A stretch of DNA of 42,068 nt from a virus (Duplodnaviria > Heunggongvirae > Uroviricota > Caudoviricetes). This document shows, in pieces, positions 1-40,829 of this stretch (positions within the stretch are counted from its first letter, which is position 1; each line of letters begins with the position of its first letter). Location: the IMG/VR virus record IMGVR_UViG_2585427763_000002; one strand, given 5' to 3'. Below the pieces are notes generated by a model that was not told the DNA's origin, searched no databases, and worked only from the letters and a program-made list of their open reading frames with translations. The translations under genes and the position numbers were made by a program.

Positions 1-1284
1 CTACTTCTTCGCCTCTGCAACCACTTTGCTACCCACGCCGCGGTTATTGTATTCCCACATGCGGTTGTAGTTAGTGTCATTCAGATTGCGCTGTACTTCG
101 TCGTTATCATCAACGCTGCCGGTGTTACCCGCAAACGGACGATTAGAGATCACCGCATCAGCCCACGGTTTGGCTGTGTTAAAACCTTCGTTGATGGCGC
201 TATCACGGATCACTACCTGACCGTTGGTATTGGCATCAACATCCAGCGAGCGGCCCAGTTGCGCCACGCCATCACCGGAAGCATTGAAACGGCTGTTTAC
301 GGCGAGGAAACCGTAGTAAATGTTGGACAGCGTAGCCGGTGCAAACACATACGCTTCTTGCTGGGTACGGGAGTTCACCACGCGGAATTCGGTGTTATCG
401 AACACCACTGCGCCGCGACCAGAAACGATATCCACATCCCCTTCAATATAGCTGTTGGTCACCAGCGTACGCGGCTGGCGATTCGTTTCCAGACGGTTCT
501 GCACACCGCTGTTGGTGACAAAGAAGGTGTTCTGACGACCGAGAATGTTGACGTTATTGATCTGCACTTTGTCGCCATCAGTACGCAGTGCCACCGCCGG
601 ATGGTTACCCGCATCTACGCTATCGCCCAGCGTGTTTTCGATGGTCAGGTTTTGCAGTTGCAGGCCATTGTTTTGTGACCAGAAGACCGCAGAGCAGAGA
701 ACACCGATACTGTCGCTGCGTTTACTCTGGCAGCTATCGTACATATACCACGCCGGTTTACCTGGCATATATTTGCCGCGCGGGTTGACGTCGTGACGCC
801 AGTCGGCAGGGCTCATGCCACCATCAAGGGAAAGCCCAATCTTCACATCAATCGGTTTTTCACCTGTACCGTACAGAGTAATTCCACCCGGAGCGGCAGG
901 GACATACACCGTTCCCTGATACTCACCAGGCATCACGGCAATATACTGGCGCTTGTTGGTACGCTTGATAATTGCCGCATCTACCGCCGCCTGAATCGTG
1001 GTATGCGTTACACCTTGAGTACCCGCCGGGCCGACAACAAAGTCAGGTTGCGCAGGCAGGGTAATCGGGGAAGGATTCCACGCTGCCGCACCTGGTGTCA
1101 GGGATGCAAAATAGTGTTGAGCATCGAAATTCTGCGCTTCTTTTGCCGACAGAATCGGGCGCGAAGAGGTACCAGGCGCGGTTTGATCAGAAGGACGTTG
1201 ATCGGGCGGTGTTGAGCTACAGGCGGTCAGCGTCACGCCAAAAGCCAATGCCAGCGCCAGACGGGAAACTGAAAATGTGTTCAC
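1..1284 (-). CDS. ybhC: Outer-membrane lipoprotein YbhC (pectinesterase-fold acyl-CoA thioesterase family); host gene flanking attB-lambda
   Basis: 427-aa ORF with signal peptide and lipobox (LTAC); sequence recalled as E. coli YbhC; lies directly left of the lambda att core. Confidence 0.85.
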   Translation of the reverse strand: MNTFSVSRLALALAFGVTLTACSSTPPDQRPSDQTAPGTSSRPILSAKEAQNFDAQHYFASLTPGAAAWNPSPITLPAQPDFVVGPAGTQGVTHTTIQAAVDAAIIKRTNKRQYIAVMPGEYQGTVYVPAAPGGITLYGTGEKPIDVKIGLSLDGGMSPADWRHDVNPRGKYMPGKPAWYMYDSCQSKRSDSIGVLCSAVFWSQNNGLQLQNLTIENTLGDSVDAGNHPAVALRTDGDKVQINNVNILGRQNTFFVTNSGVQNRLETNRQPRTLVTNSYIEGDVDIVSGRGAVVFDNTEFRVVNSRTQQEAYVFAPATLSNIYYGFLAVNSRFNASGDGVAQLGRSLDVDANTNGQVVIRDSAINEGFNTAKPWADAVISNRPFAGNTGSVDDNDEVQRNLNDTNYNRMWEYNNRGVGSKVVAEAKK

Positions 1285-1418: not shown

Positions 1419-2489
1419 TTATTTGATTTCAATTTTGTCCCACTCCCTGCCTCTGTCATCACGATACTGTGATGCCATGGTGTCCGACTTATGCCCGAGA
1501 AGATGTTGAGCAAACTTATCGCTTATCTGCTTCTCATAGAGTCTTGCAGACAAACTGCGCAACTCGTGAAAGGTAGGCGGATCCCCTTCGAAGGAAAGAC
1601 CTGATGCTTTTCGTGCGCGCATAAAATACCTTGATACTGTGCCGGATGAAAGCGGTTCACGACGAGTAGATGCAATTATGGTTTCTCCGCCAAGAATCTC
1701 TTTGCATTTATCAAGAGTTTCCTTCATTGATATCCCGAGAGCATCAACATGCAATGTTGTAGGGATGGCAATTTTTACACCTGTTTTGCTTTGCTCGACA
1801 TAAAGATATCCATCTACGATATCAGACCACTTCATTTCGCATAAATCACCAACTCGCTGCCCGGTAACAACAGCCAGTTCCATTGCAAGTCTGAGCCAAC
1901 ATGGTGATGATTCTGCTGCTTGATAAATTTTCAGGTATTCGTCAGCCGTAAGTCTTGATCTCCTTACCTCTGATTTTGCAGCGCGAGTGGCAGCGACCGG
2001 GTTTATTGTTATATGGCCTTCAGCTATTGCCTCTCGGAATGCATCGCTCAGTGTTGATCTGATTAACTTGGCTGACGCCGCCTTGCCCTCGTCTATGTAT
2101 CCATTGAGCATTGCCGCAATTTCTTTTGTGGTGATGTCTTCAAGTGGAACATCAGGTAGCCCCCTCCTTATTGCTTTAATTTTGCTCATGTAATTTATGA
2201 GTGTCTTCTGCTTGATTCCTCTGCTGGCGAGGATTTTTTCGTAGCGATCAAGCCATGAATGTAACGTAACAGAATTATCACTGTTGATTCTCGCTGTCAG
2301 AGGCTTGTGTTTGTGTCCTGAAAATAACTCAATGTTGGCCTGTATAGCTTCAGTGATTGCGATTCGCCTGTCTCGGCCTAATCCAAACTCTTTACCCGTC
2401 CTTGGGTCCCTGTAGCAGTAATATCCATTGTTTCTTATATAAAGGTTAGGGGGTAAATCCCGGCGCTCATGACTTCGCCTTCTTCCCAT
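1419..2489 (-). CDS. int: Tyrosine integrase, lambda Int type
   Basis: 356 aa, MGRRRSHERRDLPPNLYIRNNGYYCYRDPRTGKEF... recalled as near-identical to lambda Int; adjacent to P' arm. Confidence 0.95.
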   Translation of the reverse strand: MGRRRSHERRDLPPNLYIRNNGYYCYRDPRTGKEFGLGRDRRIAITEAIQANIELFSGHKHKPLTARINSDNSVTLHSWLDRYEKILASRGIKQKTLINYMSKIKAIRRGLPDVPLEDITTKEIAAMLNGYIDEGKAASAKLIRSTLSDAFREAIAEGHITINPVAATRAAKSEVRRSRLTADEYLKIYQAAESSPCWLRLAMELAVVTGQRVGDLCEMKWSDIVDGYLYVEQSKTGVKIAIPTTLHVDALGISMKETLDKCKEILGGETIIASTRREPLSSGTVSRYFMRARKASGLSFEGDPPTFHELRSLSARLYEKQISDKFAQHLLGHKSDTMASQYRDDRGREWDKIEIK

Positions 2490-2685
2490 TTCTGATCCTC
2501 TTCAAAAGGCTACCTGTTACTGGTCGATTTAAGTCAACCTTTACCGCTGATTCGTGGAACAGATACTCTCTTCCATCCTTAACCGGAGGAGGGAATATCC
2601 TGCATTCGCGCACCCATCGACGAACTGTTTCAAGGCTTCTTGGGCGTCGCTGGCGTGCGTTCCACTCCTGAAGTGTCAAGTACAT
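2467..2685 (-). CDS. xis: Excisionase, lambda Xis type
   Basis: 72 aa, MYLTLQEWNARQRRPRSLETVRRWVRECRIFPPP...; overlaps int start as in lambda. Confidence 0.9.
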   Translation of the reverse strand: MYLTLQEWNARQRRPRSLETVRRWVRECRIFPPPVKDGREYLFHESAVKVDLNRPVTGSLLKRIRNGKKAKS

Positions 2686-2790
2686 CGCAAAGTCTCCGCA
2701 ATTACACGCAAGAAAAGCCGCATTGATGCGGCAATGGTAGGTCTGGATATCTTGAGAAATGAACGGGCCTCATCGAGTGTGAGGCTGTGG

Positions 2791-3135
2791 TTAGTCCTTG
2801 CGTAACTCGCTAATTCTTCTGTAAGTCTCTGGTGCTTTGTTTCCGTGTATCTTCATTTCAGACTTCAACAGAGCAACGAGGGAATCCCATTCGGTGAGGA
2901 TGCCTTTGAATGCAGGAACGCGCTTTGCAACCTTGTCGAATGAATCTCTGATTTCTGGGATCTGCTCAACCAGTGCAACGCATCGTCGGAAATCGGCTGC
3001 GTCATGTGGAGCGCCGAAGTGATGACCATAGATATTCTTTTTCAGTCCACATGCGATTGAGGCAAGAGTTGCGCTACTGATGCCGACATCGCCAGTCGAT
3101 TGCCATTTCAAAACCTTCATAGCCAAATCTGACAT
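2791..3135 (-). CDS. Hypothetical early-left protein
   Basis: 114-aa ORF with GGAGA RBS; position equivalent to lambda ea genes; no family recognised. Confidence 0.55.
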   Translation of the reverse strand: MSDLAMKVLKWQSTGDVGISSATLASIACGLKKNIYGHHFGAPHDAADFRRCVALVEQIPEIRDSFDKVAKRVPAFKGILTEWDSLVALLKSEMKIHGNKAPETYRRISELRKD

Positions 3136-3235
3136 TTCTTGTCTCCATAAAACAAAACTCGCCGTAGCGAGTTCAGATAAAAGAAATACCCGCGAATGCG
3201 AGGATTGTTATTCACCTTTGACGGCAAGTTGCAGG

Positions 3236-3991
3236 TTAGCCATGGTTAACCTCCTGCGGCGGTTCTGGTAGCGGCATCCAGTGTGATGGAATCCACGACG
3301 CACCAGGAATTATCCAACCATCATTAGCGTCAGGATGTCCCGGTATGTAAGTCGCCCACTTCATTCGCCAGTCACCTTTCCCGTCAAACTCCCTGGCAAC
3401 AAGAACAGCTGTTTTGCTATCCGGCATTCGCTCACTACAGCTTATCCAACCATCCGGAGTTACCGGATAGTTGCCAGCCAGTCTACGCAACACAGCCTTA
3501 ACGGCCTCAATACGGTCATCATCAACTTTTTCTACAATATTGGAATTTAAATACTTCGAAGCCTTGCTATGCCAATCGCTGGTTTTAGGGTCTTGTCCAT
3601 CCATCAAACGCCAAGCTTCAGCGATTAACTCATAGCCAGTAACAGTGGCTTCCTGCGCATCACCAATCAGTTGTGTGATCTCTCTTTCAAGCATGCTTAG
3701 AGCGTTAGGCATTGGTTTTTCTTCCGGTACTACTGGAACGGGTGGAGCGGCGTAGACCTCAATAATTCCATTATCAATAGGCCATTCTCCATCCTTGAGG
3801 TAGTCACTTGTGCCGTCAACTTGCTGTTCTGCAATGTGGAATGCACCTATTGGTTTTGCTTCCAGCGATGCCAGAGCAATCCGTGCCAGTTCTTCCGCTT
3901 CTTCTGCTGGCAGTACAACGTTGCTACCCGGTCCGTATGTTTCGCGCCACTGCTTGATTGTCAGCAGTCGCCCTTTGGTAATAGTGATCAT
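3236..3991 (-). CDS. DUF551-domain phage protein
   Basis: 251 aa; C-terminal ...SCSERMPDS...SHWMPLPEPP typical of DUF551 proteins of lambdoid early regions; start ATGA-overlaps upstream stop. Confidence 0.65.
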   Translation of the reverse strand: MITITKGRLLTIKQWRETYGPGSNVVLPAEEAEELARIALASLEAKPIGAFHIAEQQVDGTSDYLKDGEWPIDNGIIEVYAAPPVPVVPEEKPMPNALSMLEREITQLIGDAQEATVTGYELIAEAWRLMDGQDPKTSDWHSKASKYLNSNIVEKVDDDRIEAVKAVLRRLAGNYPVTPDGWISCSERMPDSKTAVLVAREFDGKGDWRMKWATYIPGHPDANDGWIIPGASWIPSHWMPLPEPPQEVNHG

Positions 3992-4503
3992 GCCGCGTTT
4001 CCTTCTTTCTTATTAACAATCACACCGTCATATATTTCATTAAGGTGCCCTCTCAACTCCATGCGCCTTAATGCAGATAACATGTAATCGCATTCAACCT
4101 GCTTATTCCCAGTAAATGGCTTATCGTCAGGATTACCCCAACAGCAATTACCCCTGGGCCATCCATGTACTTTCCGTACTCTTCCGTTAACAACGTGAAG
4201 TAATCCCCAGCCGGGAGGTAAATCCTCAACTGAAATAATTTCCGGCTCACTAATAAAGAATCGCCAGTCGCCCATGCCAAGTGAGGGATTTTTACGGAAA
4301 CGCTTTTTTCTATCTGCCAACAAGTCAGCACGAGAACACTTCGCCTCTATCAGGCATGATGCTGAATTTCTGAATCCCATAGCATCTGGCTGTTCTCCGG
4401 TACTGGTTACAGCAACAAAGCGGTCATGAAAGCAAACCTTGAACCCGTTGCGCTTAAGGAACTTGTACGCAATCTGACAGAGTTCGTGGTGTGTTAACGC
4501 CAT
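3988..4503 (-). CDS. PD-(D/E)xK nuclease-like protein (family not identified)
   Basis: 171 aa from ATG at 4503 (TGATATG coupling to upstream gene); motif EQPDAMGF...(16 aa)...IEAKCSRADL fits PD...(D/E)xK. Confidence 0.5.
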   Translation of the reverse strand: MALTHHELCQIAYKFLKRNGFKVCFHDRFVAVTSTGEQPDAMGFRNSASCLIEAKCSRADLLADRKKRFRKNPSLGMGDWRFFISEPEIISVEDLPPGWGLLHVVNGRVRKVHGWPRGNCCWGNPDDKPFTGNKQVECDYMLSALRRMELRGHLNEIYDGVIVNKKEGNAA

Positions 4504-4504
4504 A

Positions 4505-4990
4505 TCACTCTCCTTTGATGCGAATGCCTGTTGCAATGCTGTTTATGATGCTGTCAGTGCATGGGGTAGAAAGCTGGGCATCTCCAGCAATTTTCATGAC
4601 CTCAACATCTGCATATCGAATACCGAGGTGTATCAGACCGGCTATGCCTGACTTAAGCCGAGCATTTTCCATAAATAGAACTTTTGCCCGCTGTTTTTCT
4701 GCTTCAAGCTCAACGCGCAGCTTCCCTACCGTTAGCGCAATATCCTCGTTCTCCTGATCGCGGCTTTTGATGTATTGCAGGTTTCTTTCCCGTTCATCCA
4801 GCAGTGCCAGCACGGTTTCTGGTCCGGTCAGAAATTTGAAGGCGTTGAGCGCATCAATATCCACACCGTAATCTTTAAGTTCCTGTTCACTTAACAAATC
4901 ATCATCAGCTGGCAACATTAACAGGCGTTCCATTGCTGGAATTGCACGTTCCGCCACCTCACGCAATGCCTGATAGTTAATTTGGGTCAC
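4505..4990 (-). CDS. Hypothetical protein, possibly Ead/Ea22-like
   Basis: 161-aa ORF, GTG start overlapping upstream stop (GTGA); coiled-coil-rich; family assignment from memory only. Confidence 0.5.
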   Translation of the reverse strand: MTQINYQALREVAERAIPAMERLLMLPADDDLLSEQELKDYGVDIDALNAFKFLTGPETVLALLDERERNLQYIKSRDQENEDIALTVGKLRVELEAEKQRAKVLFMENARLKSGIAGLIHLGIRYADVEVMKIAGDAQLSTPCTDSIINSIATGIRIKGE

Positions 4991-5211
4991 TCTTCATCCT
5001 CCAAGTCGGCAACGGCGTCCATCACATCAGAACCGCGAATAACCTCAAAAGCACGGCAGGCCATTTGAAATACCAGTTGCTCTTGCGGATGCGGTGATTC
5101 CCAATATTTGAATCCAGGGCGATGCGCGTACCCCATCATTGAATAAAAATCACCAGCAAGCTTAATCGCGGCATCAACAAGCTCTCTGTTAGTCATTCTT
5201 TTTCCGCTCAC
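4987..5211 (-). CDS. Hypothetical small protein
   Basis: 74-aa ORF (GTG at 5211, alternative ATG at 5196); translationally coupled within leftward operon. Confidence 0.45.
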   Translation of the reverse strand: MSGKRMTNRELVDAAIKLAGDFYSMMGYAHRPGFKYWESPHPQEQLVFQMACRAFEVIRGSDVMDAVADLEDEE

Positions 5212-5765
5212 TGGTTGCCTCCTTTGCGAAGCTGGGCGGCGATATCTTTGAGAACGCCATCAGAGAATGAGCGGTCAAAATCTCCTTCCGGCGCATTAGC
5301 CATAAACTCAGTAGAGGTAAGGATCATCCGGGCAATATCCGCGGCGTTCTTCGCAGTATCATCAATAAAACCAGCTTTCCAGGCTGCCAACATTCTGTTC
5401 GCCACAAAATAAGCGCCTTCCTTGCGTGCTTCAGTCTTCCCTTCAGCCAGAAAAGCATCGGTGGCTGGGGTTTCAGTAACATCATCTTCCCATTCGCTAA
5501 ACTCCTCACGACAAAAGTCATTAAATTCCTTCTCAGATTGCTTAAGCGAGGTATTTTCTGCAGCCATCTTCGCGCATTTAGCCTCAAGGTTATCAATCGT
5601 GATTCCAGCAGAACGACACTCCCGCAACGCCGTTTCCAGTTTTGATTCAAGTTCACCGAACTTACGGACAAGATATTCAGCGTTTGTTTCGTTAACCTTT
5701 AAATCTCGTGGTAAGCATTTACCTTTCAGAAATCCATCCATCTCAATTAGTGACATTTGTTTCAT
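5208..5765 (-). CDS. Hypothetical protein, possibly Ead/Ea22-like
   Basis: 185 aa from ATG at 5765 (RBS GGAGTGGGAAG upstream; ATGA overlap with upstream stop); acidic, coiled-coil-rich. Confidence 0.5.
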
Positions 5766-5944
5766 TTCTTCCCACTCCGCCACATCGCATTCAGATATTT
5801 GTTTTGATTTACTGAAGGAAAAGAATTTCTCTTAAGCAATTCCTCTCTCGATGGCATTGGCTTTACGCGTTGGCGAATAATCATTTCTGCCGGAAGAATG
5901 CCGGGATTGTATGCAAGTCCTCTCATGGTAAATTCCTCAGTCAT
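5762..5944 (-). CDS. Hypothetical small protein
   Basis: 60-aa ORF whose ATG overlaps stop of 5937-6233 gene. Confidence 0.35.
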
Positions 5945-6233
5945 TACTGATAGCGCCATAGCGTGAGCGGTAATTACGCAGGCGCGGGTCGATATATTCA
6001 GGGAAGTGGGTATATGTGGCTTTGCGGAATGGTCGGATTGATGTCTGGTAAATTCGCTCGCGTTCTTCTTTCTCTGCAAGCCATATACAGTGGCGAAATT
6101 CCTTTTCCTCTTTCGTTTCCTGCGGTAGAGACATTATTCGATCGTAGTTTTTTCTGAATTTATCCAGCACCTCCGATACGGAATTGCCGGAACAGCGGCG
6201 CGGGTCATCCGCACCATACAGAGGCGCTGGCAT
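5937..6233 (-). CDS. Hypothetical protein
   Basis: 98-aa ORF with GGAGA RBS (CAGGAGAAAATCATG on minus strand). Confidence 0.5.
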
Positions 6234-6246
6234 GATTTTCTCCTGA

Positions 6247-6753
6247 TTAAATTGCGTGAATAGCGTGACGAGGGAAGGGGAGAGTTACTGGTGCAAAGGG
6301 TATATCGTCGTCAAAATCCATCGGAGGTTCGTTGTGTTGTGCTGGTGATGATTGCTGCTGTGGCTTCTGTGATTGCCTGCTGGCTGCTTGTTGTTTGCTG
6401 TCGCCAATGCCGCCAAGCATTTGCATCACGCCATTAATTCCGACATGAACCTCGGTTGTGTAACGGTCTTGCCCTGACTGGTCTTTCCACTTTCTGGTTC
6501 TCAGCATTCCCTCGAAATAAATCTGATCACCTTTTTTCACATACTGCCCCACGACCTCAGCCAGTTTCCCGGATACAGCAACACGATGCCATTCAGTCAA
6601 TTCCTTTTGCTCGCCAGTATTTTTATCTCGCCATTGTTCTGAAGTGGCTATTGTCAGGTTAGCGAACGCTGTACCTGATGGTGAGTATCGAACTTCCGGG
6701 TCTTGTCCTACCCGACCAAGGATAATCACCTTATTTACGCCTCTGCTTGCCAT
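6247..6753 (-). CDS. ssb: Single-stranded DNA-binding protein (SSB)
   Basis: 168 aa; N-terminal OB-fold [44 protein letters not shown]..., Gln/Pro-rich linker and acidic C-terminal tail DFDDDIPF. Confidence 0.9.
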
Positions 6754-7461
6754 TTATGCCGCCTGTTTTAGTTCGTTAACTCTGATGTTCATTACCTGAA
6801 CGCATTTAGCCTGCGCCTCCTCGTTGCCAGCCATTAATTGCCAGTCACGCTGATAACGCTCGATGAGTTTTTTCTTGTCAGTTTCTGTTGACGCATAATC
6901 GCTGAAGTCTTTCAGGATTTGTTCGCAGTCAACCGATGGAGATTTCTGGTTGGTATTTTCTGGTGATGGTTTGTTATCTGATGCTGGGATTGCCCATCCC
7001 GGCAGCGATGGAGGGAGCCAGTAAAATCCTGTTCCATCCTTCAGTTTTGCCCTGTGCCACCCATGCTTTTTATCGAGAGATGTTTGTGCGAAACCTTCCT
7101 CAAGGTTATACAGATACCGACCGATTCCCCACTGAACGGCAGCACGCTTCATTGCACCTGAACGACCACCTTTGACAGCTTCTACCTGCGTGTTTTCAGC
7201 AGCATCCCATTTGGTTACCCATTCGGAATCAATCTTTATTGATATGCCGCATTCAACGCCGCCGTTGTTGGGAATATCGCGGTATTCATTGCGCCATCCT
7301 GCTTTGCCACAAACATCGTCAAGGCGTTTCATGATTGCCCGGTTCGTGACATAAGCCAGCACCATAGCCCACACCTTGCCATCGCGTGTTTTACCGCTTT
7401 GCTGTATTCGCCATTCGATATCTTCAGGGCAGAATGGCTCATCGAATTTGTTCAAATCCAT
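6754..7461 (-). CDS. Rad52/Sak-family single-strand annealing recombinase
   Basis: 235 aa; stop abuts ssb start; motifs recalled from phage Rad52/22 family (GKVWAMVLAYVTNRAIMKRLDDVCG). Confidence 0.7.
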   Translation of the reverse strand: MDLNKFDEPFCPEDIEWRIQQSGKTRDGKVWAMVLAYVTNRAIMKRLDDVCGKAGWRNEYRDIPNNGGVECGISIKIDSEWVTKWDAAENTQVEAVKGGRSGAMKRAAVQWGIGRYLYNLEEGFAQTSLDKKHGWHRAKLKDGTGFYWLPPSLPGWAIPASDNKPSPENTNQKSPSVDCEQILKDFSDYASTETDKKKLIERYQRDWQLMAGNEEAQAKCVQVMNIRVNELKQAA

Positions 7462-7560
7462 AATTCACCTCAGAATGGACATGGCCCAAGGAAATAACGC
7501 TGGTTTAATACTTCGACTCTGGACAAATTAAGGCATACCCGCATTCCTTCGCGGTCGCCA

Positions 7561-7719
7561 TTATGGCGATACCAGAGAGCTTTCTGCGTGTACATGCGTC
7601 TCTGTAACTTGCTCTCCTTCACTGTGGTTGCAAGTGACATGAATATCTCCTTCGTTACCGATTAATTCTTTCATCTGACGAATGAATTCTTCGTCTGACC
7701 AGTTATCTGTAAAACTCAT
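7561..7719 (-). CDS. Small protein in the kil position
   Basis: 52-aa ORF from ATG at 7719, ATGA-coupled to cIII stop; identity with Kil not verifiable. Confidence 0.35.
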   Translation of the reverse strand: MSFTDNWSDEEFIRQMKELIGNEGDIHVTCNHSEGEQVTETHVHAESSLVSP

Positions 7720-8105: not shown

Positions 8106-8261
8106 TCAACACCCCACATGTTTGTTACCCAGGATAGTTTTTTCGTACCGTTGACAAGATTCAGACCACATAAACTGACTTCCATGCGGGCGAGTTTCGA
8201 TATCTGTTATCTCTCCCGGCCGAACAAAACTGGTATTCGACTTCGTTATTTTTACTTTCAT
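8106..8261 (-). CDS. Small hypothetical ORF
   Basis: 51-aa ORF (MKVKITKSNTSFVRPGEITD...) whose ATG overlaps stop of the 8261-8518 gene (TAATG); below ORF-track size cutoff. Confidence 0.3.
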   Translation of the reverse strand: MKVKITKSNTSFVRPGEITDIETRPHGSQFMWSESCQRYEKTILGNKHVGC

Positions 8262-8518
8262 TACTCATCCCCAAGAGCTTTGCTGATTGCTGACTGTGCT
8301 TTCGATACTTCATCAGGATAATGGTCATTCCAGCTTTGCTTGTATGCCTTGTTTAGCATCGCTTGCAGAGCTTCAAGCAAATCAGGAGCTGCCTCCATCA
8401 ATCTCAAATCACCACGATGTATGGTTGTATCGTCAAACGTGACATAAACACCATCATCGTTGAATCCAGTGCCAACAACACTCCACGGCCTTTTCATTCT
8501 TTCTACGGTCATATTCAC
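8261..8518 (-). CDS. Hypothetical protein
   Basis: 85-aa ORF with RBS GAGGTGA 5 nt upstream. Confidence 0.5.
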   Translation of the reverse strand: MNMTVERMKRPWSVVGTGFNDDGVYVTFDDTTIHRGDLRLMEAAPDLLEALQAMLNKAYKQSWNDHYPDEVSKAQSAISKALGDE

Positions 8519-8564: not shown

Positions 8565-8987
8565 TTAATTAACCAATGATGCTGCATATTCAATTAGGAA
8601 TAACTTAGGTGCAAGCCAAATCTTCAACCATTCGAAATTGAAGGCAATAATTAAAACGCCAATAATTGAGCCAAATATAGGAGCAAATACAGTGCATATA
8701 TCGTAATAAAACGAAGATATAAAATATCCATCATTTGGACATCCATCGAAAGACGTCCATCTCTCGCCATTATTTCTTGCCGTTCTTGCAAAACTAGGAA
8801 GTTTCATTGCTGCAATTAAAAGCAACAACCCAGTCACTTGGAAAAGTGCGCTATGGACAAAACTCCATATTAGCAACTGACGAACAACATCAGGAATCTG
8901 TGACTGGCTAAATGAAACAGCCGCATCTATTCCATTACTGGCTTTTTGCAGTAGTTCTACGAGAATCTTGTTCGCTTGTTCTTCCAT
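8565..8987 (-). CDS. Membrane protein in the sieB position (candidate superinfection-exclusion protein)
   Basis: 140 aa with several hydrophobic helices; located between N and cIII where lambda/P22 carry sieB; RBS GAGGTGA. Confidence 0.5.
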   Translation of the reverse strand: MEEQANKILVELLQKASNGIDAAVSFSQSQIPDVVRQLLIWSFVHSALFQVTGLLLLIAAMKLPSFARTARNNGERWTSFDGCPNDGYFISSFYYDICTVFAPIFGSIIGVLIIAFNFEWLKIWLAPKLFLIEYAASLVN

Positions 8988-8995
8988 ATATCACC

Positions 8996-9322
8996 TCAAA
9001 TAAGTGGTTTGCTGCCTAATTTCATTTTCTGGCGACCAACACATGTCACACCCATTTCACTGCGTGGCTTGCTGTACCATGTGCGCTGATTCTTGCGCTC
9101 AATACGCTGCAGGTTGCTTTCAATCTGTTCGTGGTATTCAGCCAGCACCGTAAGGTCTATCGGATTCAGTGCGCTTTCTACTCGTGATTTCGGTTTGCGA
9201 TTCAGCGAGAGAATAGGGCGGTTAACTGGTTTTGCGCTTACCCCAACCAACAGGGGATTTGCTGCTTTCCATTGAGCCTGTTTCTCTGCGCGACGTTCGC
9301 GGCGGCGTGTTTGTGCATCCAT
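8996..9322 (-). CDS. N: Antitermination protein N, lambda type
   Basis: MDAQTRRRERRAEKQAQWKAANPLLVGVSAKPVNRPILSLNRKPKSRVESALNPIDLTVLAEYH... recalled as lambda N, including the arginine-rich boxB-binding motif. Confidence 0.9.
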   Translation of the reverse strand: MDAQTRRRERRAEKQAQWKAANPLLVGVSAKPVNRPILSLNRKPKSRVESALNPIDLTVLAEYHEQIESNLQRIERKNQRTWYSKPRSEMGVTCVGRQKMKLGSKPLI

Positions 9323-9494
9323 CTGGATTCTCCTGTCAGTTAGCTTTGGTGGTGTGGTAGGTGGGAGACCCATTTCGACCTGCTTCGGCCGACTTCAATT
9401 CGGCAATAGTTCCGCAGGCCTCGCCGCTTTACGTGCGACATATTCCCATCCATGAACCCTTCACCACACCCCAAAGCCTTCTGCTTTGAATGCT

Positions 9495-9718: not shown

Positions 9719-10378
9719 TTAACTAAATGTCTCTTCAGGCCACTGGCTGGCGATAACTTTCCCTACTACGGAACAGCTATCATTGCATGGAATCATTGGA
9801 TATTGCGGGTTTAGTGGCTGTAGGAACACCTGACCGCTATCCCTGATCAGTTTCTTGAAGGTAAACTCGTCACCACCAAGTCTGGCTATGCAGAAATCAC
9901 CTGGCTCAACAGCCTGCTCAGGGTCAACGAGAATTAACATCCCGTCAGGAAAGCTTGGCTTGGATCCTGTTGGCGCGGTCATGGAATTACCTTCAACTTC
10001 AAGCCAGAACGCACAATCACTGGCTTTTTTGGTTGTGCTGACCCATCTCTCCGCATCACCTTTGGTAAAGGTTCTAAGCTCAGGCGAGAACATCCCGGCC
10101 TGAACATGAGAAAAAACAGGGTACTCATATTGTTTTTTTAACGGGGCAGATGAGTATTCGCCAACAGGTGAAAATGTACCGTCGTGGTTGAATGAGACGT
10201 TATCAATACCAAGGTATTTAAACACCACACCAATCTCGTCAAGAGATGGATGACGAGATCCGCGCAACCAGTGACCAATTCCACCCTGCGTCATACCAAG
10301 CTCTTCAGCTAACTTCTCTTGAGTTATGCCGAGTTCTTTCATTCTGGATCTAGCCAGTTCATACCATTTCATTTTCAT
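9719..10378 (-). CDS. cI: CI-type immunity repressor (HTH domain + S24 LexA-like autopeptidase domain); hybrid with lambda-like C-terminal domain
   Basis: C-terminal ~140 aa ([35 protein letters not shown]...[24 protein letters not shown]...) recalled as near-identical to lambda CI; N-terminal HTH differs (start chosen at [17 protein letters not shown]; 10453 ORF start unlikely). Confidence 0.85.
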
Positions 10379-10489
10379 ATCCTTATTATTACGCTCTGTA
10401 CTAAAACCATCCATGCACAAGATGTATTTTTTGTTTGCATTCCAAAAGTACATATCGTATTATTGTTTCATGGTTACTATGGAGGGCAT
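10379..10489. promoter_or_regulatory. OR operator region with divergent pRM/pR promoters
   Basis: 111-bp AT-rich divergent interval between cI and cro starts; operator half-sites not confidently resolved. Confidence 0.55.
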
Positions 10490-36521: not shown

Positions 36522-36721
36522 GTAAAGAATGTTGTTTCTGCGGCATTAGCGAATCAGACGCTGATCAAACATACATTTACTCTAAAGAAACAGGTCGGAT
36601 GCTGTGTAGTGACTGCGTGTTGGACATCATAAGATACAAGCATCTTGGATGTTCTGCCAGCATTAGCAATATAGGTGAAGTATATGAAGGGAAAGATATA
36701 ACTGATAGAGCAGAAAGTTGA
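36518..36721 (+). CDS. Small zinc-ribbon-like protein
   Basis: 67 aa with CxxC...CxxC pattern (CCFCG ... CSDC); ATGA-coupled to arc-like stop. Confidence 0.45.
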   Translation: MSKECCFCGISESDADQTYIYSKETGRMLCSDCVLDIIRYKHLGCSASISNIGEVYEGKDITDRAES

Positions 36722-36784
36722 AGCCCCAACTGCGGTAACAGTCAGGGCTTCGGTATCGTAAAACCACGCATAGGAATTAACGAC

Positions 36785-40352: not shown

Positions 40353-40829
40353 TTAACTAAACATCGCAGTAATCGAGGCACTCGCCAGAGAGTGAAAATG
40401 AACGTTAAACCCGACCATCGCGCCGCTGGCACCTTCATCGACATCAATACGTTCTACATCCAGCGCGTGAACGGTAAAAATGTAGCGATGGGTTTCGCCT
40501 TTCGGCGGCGCTGCGCCATCGTACCCGGTTTTACCAAAGTCGGTACGCGTCTGCAAAACGCCGTCTGGCATAGCTACCAGACCAGAGCCAAACCCTTGCG
40601 GTAATACGCGGGTATCAGCGGGTAAATTAACAACTACCCAGTGCCACCAGCCGGAGCCGGTTGGCGCATCCGGGTCATAGCAGGTGACAACAAAACTTTT
40701 CGTTCCCACAGGAACATCATCCCACGCCAGATGCGGTGAAATATTATCGCCATCGTAACCCATGCCGTTAAAGACATGACGATGCGGCAGCTTATCGCCA
40801 TCGCGCAGATCGTTACTGATGAGTTTCAT
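40353..40829 (-). CDS. ybhB: YbhB (PEBP/Raf-kinase-inhibitor-like protein); host gene right of attB-lambda
   Basis: 158 aa recalled as E. coli YbhB; adjacent to B' arm. Confidence 0.85.
   Translation of the reverse strand: MKLISNDLRDGDKLPHRHVFNGMGYDGDNISPHLAWDDVPVGTKSFVVTCYDPDAPTGSGWWHWVVVNLPADTRVLPQGFGSGLVAMPDGVLQTRTDFGKTGYDGAAPPKGETHRYIFTVHALDVERIDVDEGASGAMVGFNVHFHSLASASITAMFS

Follow-up and report, generated by a model that had tools for sequence, protein, structure and literature searches.

Organization of the block between xis and ssb

We analyzed a block of eight open reading frames (ORFs) on the minus strand at positions 2791-6233 of the viral record IMGVR_UViG_2585427763_000002 (Caudoviricetes), a 42,068-nucleotide (nt) stretch of DNA referred to here as the window. 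The block lies between xis (2467-2685) and ssb (6247-6753), and we number its genes ORF1 to ORF8 from the xis side, ORF8 being the first in the direction of transcription. All eight match PHROG families with E values of 1e-37 or better, and all eight exact proteins occur in public E. coli assemblies. These matches indicate that the ORFs are real genes, as an initial annotation of this DNA had proposed. That annotation had also described the block as mostly of unknown function, with only a DUF551 C-terminal domain and a PD-(D/E)xK-like motif recognizable. Profile searches agree with the first statement: one of the eight genes is well characterized (abc2, ORF8), for another (EaE/Oad2, ORF6) the family has one very recent functional report, and six are uncharacterized, so the block is not a set of well-characterized housekeeping genes. 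Both recognized features proved genuine, but they were not the only ones; Abc2, which is a functional counterpart of Gam, DUF2737, and likenesses to Ead/Ea22 and to EaE/EaA had been overlooked. No match to λ exo, bet, or gam was found among the block genes in Pfam, PHROGs, or NCBIfam, in agreement with the initial annotation.

The genes are closely spaced. ORF8 follows ssb after a 13-nt spacer with an AGGAG ribosome-binding site, and ORF7 follows ORF8 after 10 nt, starting at an ATG at 5926 that is served by a GAGGAA ribosome-binding site. Further down, ORF7 and ORF6 overlap in an ATGA (5762/5765), ORF6 and ORF5 in a GTGA (5208/5211, with an AAGGAGG ribosome-binding site), ORF5 and ORF4 in another GTGA (4987/4990, with GGAGGA), and ORF3 and ORF2 in an ATGA (3988/3991), whereas ORF4 and ORF3 are joined as TGAtATG with a 1-nt spacer (4503/4505). 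Four-nucleotide overlaps of this type are normal in phage operons. Five of the six junctions listed in the initial annotation are therefore exact. The sixth, 5937/5944, relied on an alternative in-frame ATG at 5944 that lacks a ribosome-binding site. The DUF2737 profile instead aligns from the ATG at 5926, and genes called in public assemblies encode the corresponding 54-amino acid (aa) protein.

The tight coupling that had been ascribed to all eight genes holds for seven of them. ORF1 stands apart because 100 nt and two terminator-like sites, each a hairpin followed by a T run (3202-3189 and 3174-3155, minus strand), separate it from ORF2; the folding energy of this gap is -28.8 kcal/mol (z = -2.4). 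Two more such sites (2717-2785, minus strand) occupy the 105-nt gap between ORF1 and xis. The terminator scan returned six sites in the interval 2400-7600, compared with 5.3 expected from shuffled sequences, and since this is no excess over chance we treat all of them as candidates only. A crude scan of the same interval revealed no σ70-like promoter on the minus strand, and on this ground we rejected the possibility of a separate promoter expressing ORF1 in the lysogen. Rfam and tRNA scans detected no RNA genes in the block.

Abc2, the recombination module, and the EaE/Oad2-family gene

ORF8 (5937-6233, minus strand, 98 aa) encodes Abc2, anti-RecBCD protein 2, as shown by homology. It matches PF11043 over residues 1-98 of 98 (E = 4e-62, 206.8 bits against a cut-off of 25), the PHROG family annotated as abc2 anti-RecBCD (phrog_656), and the structures of P22 Abc2 (PDB entries 8b1t, E = 1.4e-56, and 8b1u), and a tblastn comparison gave about 93% identity to the P22 protein. 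Pro-68, which has been proposed to enter the active site of PpiB (PMC9836394), is kept in ORF8 within the sequence IRPFR. In P22, Abc2 attaches to RecC close to the region that recognizes Chi. RecBCD then no longer responds to Chi but keeps its helicase and nuclease activities, and Abc2 is thought to redirect it into loading the phage recombinase, or handing resected DNA to the phage annealing protein (PMC9836394, PMC3784561).

The genes directly upstream agree with this assignment. They encode SSB (6247-6753, minus strand; PF00436, E = 1.6e-36; TIGR00621) and a Rad52/Sak-type single-strand annealing protein (6754-7461, minus strand; PF04098, E = 1.5e-25; phrog_1097, E = 1.6e-129). Family scans of the block and its neighbors returned no phage exonuclease of the Exo or YqaJ type. 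An association of Abc2 with a phage annealing protein but without a phage exonuclease has been described (PMC3784561), and the same combination is present here; hijacking of RecBCD by Abc2 would therefore account for a prophage that has an annealing protein and SSB but no exonuclease. The abc1 gene, the partner of abc2 in P22, was absent in tblastn searches with the P22 proteins. The last 79 residues of the Rad52/Sak-type protein are 63% identical to the C terminus of P22 Erf, which belongs to another annealing-protein family, suggesting that this tail was swapped, perhaps as a partner-binding module.

Downstream of abc2, ORF7 (5762-5926, minus strand, 54 aa) is a DUF2737 protein homologous to P22 orf56. 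It covers positions 1-52 of the 53 in PF10930 (E = 1.5e-30, 105.3 bits, cut-off 25) and is 75% identical to the P22 protein and 96-100% identical to the HK446, HK022, and Gally copies. A literature search on DUF2737 found no papers.

ORF6 (5208-5765, minus strand, 185 aa; phrog_614, E = 1.5e-81) is a mosaic member of the EaE/Oad2 family. Across residues 60-182 it is 77% identical to P22 EaE, and overall it is 50% identical to Gp27 (Oad2) of HK446 (BLASTP E = 4e-53). Residues 1-63 are almost identical to Oad2, and an 11-residue motif and the C-terminal QLRKGGNQ are also common to both, but the C-terminal domain (about residues 105-177) aligns with Oad2 only poorly and with gaps and is of the P22 EaE type. 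ORF6 also occupies the position of Oad2, right after DUF2737 in an ATGA overlap and downstream of abc2. A search of PDB sequences gave no credible relative.

A recent preprint gives this family a context. The OLD protein of P2 is an abortive-infection tRNase that is activated by inhibition of RecBCD; a second trigger is Gp33 of HK75 and HK446, and HK446 Gp27 (Oad2) binds and blocks OLD. The same work relates Oad2 to P22 EaE and reports occasional fusions of it with HNH or EaD/Ea22 proteins (bioRxiv 10.64898/2026.07.10.737580). The window also encodes a homolog of the trigger, at 7561-7719 on the minus strand, found by tblastn with HK446 Gp33 (88% identity over 52 aa). A 56-aa ORF at 7470-7640, considered as the Gp33 homolog and rejected, has no similarity to HK446 Gp33; it overlaps the true homolog, which is read in another frame, and is probably spurious. 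The guess that the block carries anti-defense functions, including inhibition of RecBCD, thus holds for ORF8 and is plausible for ORF6.

ORF4 (4505-4990, minus strand, 161 aa) is the EaD of this block, an Ead/Ea22-like protein that matches positions 2-139 of the 139 in PF13935 (E = 1.9e-30, 106.7 bits, cut-off 27) and is 66% identical to EaD of phage Gally. No solved structure was matched at E ≤ 0.1, hence none of the λ Ea22 C-terminal domain if the PDB copy searched includes such an entry. ORF4 and ORF6 are not detectably homologous by BLASTP (E = 0.008, 21% identity). Their segments nevertheless occur joined in other phages, in agreement with the fusions reported in the preprint: ORF4 matches positions 1-151 and ORF6 positions 91-239 of phrog_368, and phrog_14548 joins both in the opposite order.

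ORF3, a predicted nuclease that moves as a single gene

ORF3 (3988-4503, minus strand, 171 aa) encodes a predicted PD-(D/E)xK nuclease-fold protein of the MmcB/Hjc-like kind and behaves as a single-gene cassette. An alignment of 36 homologs showed an invariant PD...ExK (Asp-40, Glu-53, and Lys-55) followed by S-R-x-D-x-x-A-D. Among distant relatives Asp-40 and Asp-60 remain invariant, Glu-53 and Lys-55 are present in at least 90%, and Ser-57 and Asp-64 are nearly invariant. The PD-(D/E)xK-like motif picked out initially is therefore sound, and it is accompanied by a predicted nuclease fold. In the AlphaFold model, which is good (pLDDT 85), the closest structure is the MmcB-like protein SPO1766 (PDB entry 3DNX), and the similarity places the two proteins in the same fold. 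ORF3 also carries the S-R-x-D-F-x-x-D signature that in MmcB-like proteins comes after the PD-(D/E)xK residues.

At the sequence level the relationship is distant. A profile search aligned the catalytic motif of ORF3 to 3dnx, only at E = 0.44; the aligned 3dnx segment is itself a clear member of PF06319 (MmcB-like; E = 5e-10), but ORF3 gave no match to that family at E ≤ 0.1. Sub-threshold PF06319 matches were found in 5 of 44 distant relatives (best E = 2.9e-4), and distant relatives also match the Hjc and UPF0102 models weakly or below threshold. ORF3 had neither a family-model match nor a strong fold match to the Hjc-type Holliday junction resolvases (PF01870). The family comprises 3285 clusters at 50% identity (E ≤ 0.001). 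MmcB of Caulobacter, a PD-(D/E)xK endonuclease, protects against crosslinking agents (PMC9578287). Unlike MmcB, which is an SOS-regulated chromosomal gene, ORF3 is found on phages and plasmids, and its protein has an additional conserved GMGDWRF, a GWGLL, and a C-terminal helix.

The genomic contexts of the family are varied. In lambdoid nin regions, ORF3 homologs stand right before RusA or NinG and after NinB, and in the nin region of a Klebsiella prophage Ead, nuclease, and DUF551 stand together as a trio, as they do here. On IncF plasmids a homolog lies in the ssb-psiB-psiA operon, overlapping the psiA stop codon, and on IncI2 plasmids one lies a few kb from the relaxosome genes; Pseudomonas and Acinetobacter plasmids have homologs near ssb, rdgC, or orphan methylase genes. 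These arrangements are like the anti-defense islands of plasmid leading regions (PMC11541004), in that homologs stand beside ssb-psiB-psiA, relaxosome, and methylase genes, and the window likewise runs from ssb to an inhibitor of host recombination, with the nuclease further down. This likeness rests on seven plasmid contexts, and those on Burkholderia and Vibrio plasmids differ and look unrelated. On the Vibrio alginolyticus plasmid pL291 (locus L034, 2413-5513), a distant homolog begins 18 nt after a 2.5-kb gene for an ATP-dependent helicase. This arrangement could represent a helicase-nuclease pair, unlike the phage and leading-region contexts.

Comparisons of close copies suggest that ORF3 moves alone. 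In phage Gally the EaD stop and EaA start codons are joined as TGAtATG, and in the window ORF3 is inserted exactly there. The IncI2 plasmid NZ_CP021861 (locus L013, 4988-5527) is 98% identical in nucleotide sequence to the window over 3977-4516 only, that is, over ORF3 alone, and the gene in this copy is bordered by short microhomology (GTGATATG and ATGACCACT). Judging from these alignments, the data point to a recent single-gene exchange of ORF3 between prophage and plasmid. The exact protein is very widespread, with 9926 blocks of the collection indexed as containing it. In eight of ten sampled places it follows an Ead/Ea22 gene, again after a 1-nt spacer, and the downstream gene varies. Apparent fusions of ORF3 with the Ead N terminus, with DUF551, and with a dATP/dGTP pyrophosphohydrolase were also seen. 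In E. coli CE10 (locus L001, 4613-4791), the ORF3 ortholog is annotated as frameshifted and the adjoining Ead gene as incomplete, lacking its C terminus; both genes are therefore dispensable in that lysogen.

Together, the conserved motif and the predicted fold suggest that ORF3 is probably an active small nuclease made early after DNA entry. Its role could lie in repair or recombination, in anti-defense, or in selfish homing.

The other genes of the block are less informative. ORF5 (4987-5211, minus strand, 74 aa) matches a PHROG of unknown function (phrog_4132, E = 1.8e-42) and no Pfam, NCBIfam, or PADLOC model; it is found in only 15 phage records, and more than 1000 contigs encode its exact protein. 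ORF2 (3236-3991, minus strand, 251 aa) is an EaA-like mosaic whose C terminus (residues 181-246) is the DUF551 domain recognized initially (PF04448, E = 1e-20, 74.8 bits, cut-off 22). It is 41% identical to Gally EaA and partially, at about 40%, to P22 EaA. Its segments are matched by different phage groups, just 14 of the 571 phage records extend over 80% or more of it, and the exact variant is rare (8 contigs); a PDB sequence search gave no relative with a solved structure. ORF1 (2791-3135, minus strand, 114 aa) is a conserved phage protein predicted with very high confidence to be all-helical (seven helices, pLDDT 95.4). Its relatives in Vibrio, Pseudomonas, Clavibacter, and Arthrobacter phages lie in runs of small early genes, and the family retains a set of invariant residues; no credible relative was found among PDB sequences. 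Scans of the eight ORFs against NCBIfam and PADLOC were uninformative, the only PADLOC defense components matched being PglZ (E = 9e-4) and PtuA (E = 0.04), weakly, partially, and over short stretches.

Interpretation of the block as the distal part of an early-left operon

The setting of the block is that of a lambdoid prophage. A λ/HK022-type int (1419-2489) and xis are followed on the far side by an ORF at 1-1284 (minus strand) in the place that ybhC has in E. coli CE10, where ybhC, the integrase, and the excisionase are annotated in the same arrangement. Upstream of the block lie a cI-type repressor gene (9719-10453) and a λ-type N gene (8996-9373, minus strand; PF11438), with a promoter-like site between them (9593-9565, minus strand) that is followed by several minus-strand terminator-like sites; the genes down to int are all on one strand. 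A sar antisense RNA (36716-36783, minus strand; RF00262, 85.7 bits, gathering score 43) points to an immI (ant) region of the P22 type, despite the λ/HK022-type int and xis. From the int and xis type, cI, N, the promoter-like site, and the sar RNA we conclude that the window is a lambdoid P22/HK022-like prophage with the block in the distal stretch of its early-left (PL) operon, so that the lambdoid early-left position given in the initial annotation is correct and can be narrowed to the promoter-distal part.

Among the phage records and complete E. coli genomes searched, none has as much as 80% of the block at a single locus, and local alignments break at its gene boundaries. The block is thus an ordinary, highly mosaic lambdoid ea accessory stretch, a new combination of a known region type. 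The P22 ea region reads abc2, orf56, eaE, orf45, eaF, eaD, eaI, eaA, eaG, eaC, xis, and the block resembles it in operon position, orientation, and the order abc2, orf56, eaE, eaD, eaA, xis. Identity falls from 93% (abc2) to 77% (EaE, residues 60-182) and 75% (orf56/DUF2737), with partial matches only for EaD and for EaA (about 40%). In contrast to P22, the window lacks eaF, eaI, eaG, eaC, and abc1 and has ORF5, the ORF3 nuclease, and ORF1; a Rad52-type protein and ssb replace erf, arf, and abc1, and int and xis are of the λ/HK022 type. We know of no assigned function for any P22 ea gene.

The order also agrees with that of HK446, which is abc2, gp29, DUF2737, gp27 (Oad2), xis; in the window ORF6 takes the place of Oad2, and a Gp33 homolog is likewise encoded; the differences are the P22 EaE-type C-terminal domain of ORF6 and its 50% identity to Oad2. 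The exo-xis region of λ and Stx phages also has variable small early genes in the interval from the recombination genes to xis, including an Ead_Ea22 signature, here in ORF4, and DUF551 as a portable C-terminal domain (PMC10834534). Unlike that region, the block shows none of orf60a, orf61, orf63, orf73, or ea8.5, and the recombination module is based on Abc2 and not, as in λ, on Red.

Based on these comparisons, we propose that the block is the promoter-distal ea segment of an N-antiterminated PL operon in a prophage sitting beside ybhC, and we give this reading, including the roles proposed for its genes, a probability of about 60%. One polycistronic message would carry the cIII-like, gp33-like, Rad52-type, ssb, abc2, DUF2737, EaE/Oad2-like, ORF5, EaD, nuclease, and EaA-like/DUF551 genes, with ORF1, xis, and int coming after the terminator-like hairpins. 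The genes downstream of abc2 would be exchangeable cassettes in a hotspot of the phage-host fight over DNA-end processing. Among them, ORF6 would most likely act as a second layer, inhibiting a sensor that responds to manipulation of the Abc2 or Gp33 type, and ORF3 most likely an active small PD-(D/E)xK DNA nuclease acting early after DNA entry.

Several points weigh against this proposal. ORF3 matches no Pfam, NCBIfam, or PADLOC model, and to our knowledge no nuclease activity has been demonstrated for its family. Direct experiments exist for Abc2 alone and were done on the P22 protein, and transcription through the hairpins to ORF1 is an assumption. ORF6 shares only half of its residues with Oad2 and has a different C-terminal domain, and an HK75 homolog of Oad2 that is 54% identical fails to inhibit OLD (bioRxiv 10.64898/2026.07.10.737580). 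Because of this inactive homolog, ORF6 can be placed in the EaE/Oad2 family, but its target cannot be inferred. Ea22, the λ relative of EaD, has been described as pro-lysogenic and not as anti-defense (PMC10834534). The count of Chi sites is neutral: the single site (GCTGGTGG; 40644-40651, minus strand) in 42 kb, compared with 1.2 expected by chance, shows no detectable avoidance or enrichment and neither supports nor contradicts the avoidance expected of Abc2 phages.

We hold only tentatively a different role for ORF3, perhaps shared with EaD and the DUF551 protein, namely that of a structure-specific or repair endonuclease that serves phage recombination and replication alongside the annealing protein, SSB, and the hijacked RecBCD instead of acting in anti-defense. 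The closest structure belongs to a DNA-repair endonuclease family for crosslink damage (PMC9578287), and the weak matches of distant relatives to the Hjc resolvase model are of the same tenor. Gene neighborhoods agree with it as well, since homologs stand, in nin regions, immediately ahead of RusA or NinG and behind NinB, near ssb in the window, on IncF plasmids, and on a Pseudomonas plasmid, and after a helicase gene on the Vibrio plasmid. Against this role, ORF3 is dispensable, being precisely absent from Gally and frameshifted in E. coli CE10, and it moves alone between unrelated replicons; the phages with a homolog beside RusA or NinG also already own a resolvase.

It seems unlikely that the genes after abc2 are developmental modulators that, like those of the λ exo-xis region, bias the choice between lysis and lysogeny or induction instead of countering defense. 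The block does occupy the same place, from the recombination genes to xis, and ORF4 belongs to the Ead/Ea22 family. Ea22 of λ and of an Stx phage has been reported as pro-lysogenic, with a V2 variant that carries DUF551 (PMC10834534), and the DUF551 protein YfdS has been tied to oxidative-stress tolerance (PMC4776307). Nevertheless, ORF4 has only the N-terminal and coiled-coil signature of Ea22 and matched no solved structure at E ≤ 0.1, and Oad2, the sole family member with a biochemical mechanism, is an anti-defense protein. ORF3-family genes are also carried by conjugative plasmids and a virulent-phage-like contig, neither of which decides on lysogeny.

We consider it improbable that ORF3 is a selfish, free-standing homing-type endonuclease that spreads by cutting EaD/EaA junctions lacking ORF3 and being copied into them and that brings no benefit to the phage. 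The insertion of exactly one gene between the EaD stop and EaA start, seen in comparison with Gally, the 98% identical gene standing alone and flanked by microhomology (GTGATATG and ATGACCACT) on the IncI2 plasmid, the occurrence of the exact protein in 9926 blocks, and the annotation of HNH endonuclease genes in this region in related phages would all fit such an element. Mosaicism at gene boundaries is general in the block, however, so homing is not needed to explain the insertion. The 171-aa protein has no obvious extra DNA-recognition domain, its insertion contexts are many and unrelated, and the family is large and diverse (3285 clusters) with a well conserved motif. That the ORFs other than abc2 are evolutionary passengers without selected function in this prophage is very improbable, for although mosaicism in the region is extreme, only 8 contigs have the exact ORF2 variant, and ORF3 is a pseudogene in CE10, all ORFs are intact, translationally coupled, and equipped with ribosome-binding sites, and their families are widely conserved (ORF1 as far as phages of Actinobacteria, ORF3 in 3285 clusters) with invariant residues kept.

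Within the reading of the block as a distal ea segment, a layered conflict can be outlined. The phage would disable or hijack RecBCD through Abc2 and possibly the Gp33-like protein; hosts have sensors of compromised RecBCD, among them OLD and some retrons (bioRxiv 10.64898/2026.07.10.737580), and phages would then stack inhibitors of these sensors at this hotspot. ORF6, a natural variant of Oad2 in its C-terminal domain, could reveal determinants of target specificity, and ORF3 draws attention to a large unnamed nuclease family whose gene travels singly between phages and plasmids. The block is consistent with known lambdoid biology, and neither lead would surprise specialists. A broader extension, which we regard as doubtful, would make the ORF3 family a dedicated early-entry nuclease of temperate phages and conjugative plasmids that, within minutes of DNA entry, destroys a component of host defense or processes incoming DNA, and would make Ead/Ea22 and EaE/Oad2 a single scaffold, with a conserved N terminus and coiled coil, whose swappable C-terminal domains each neutralize a different sensor of RecBCD tampering.

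Finally, we noted minor features upstream of the block. The PF11438 match covers residues 19-53 of the N ORF, and the listed start lies 18 codons ahead of the arginine-rich motif; the true start of N is probably an internal ATG near 9319. Between N and the cIII-like gene, two ORFs of 85 and 140 aa (8261-8518 and 8565-8987, minus strand) had no Pfam match. The 140-aa product (8565-8987) appears hydrophobic by eye and is possibly a membrane protein.

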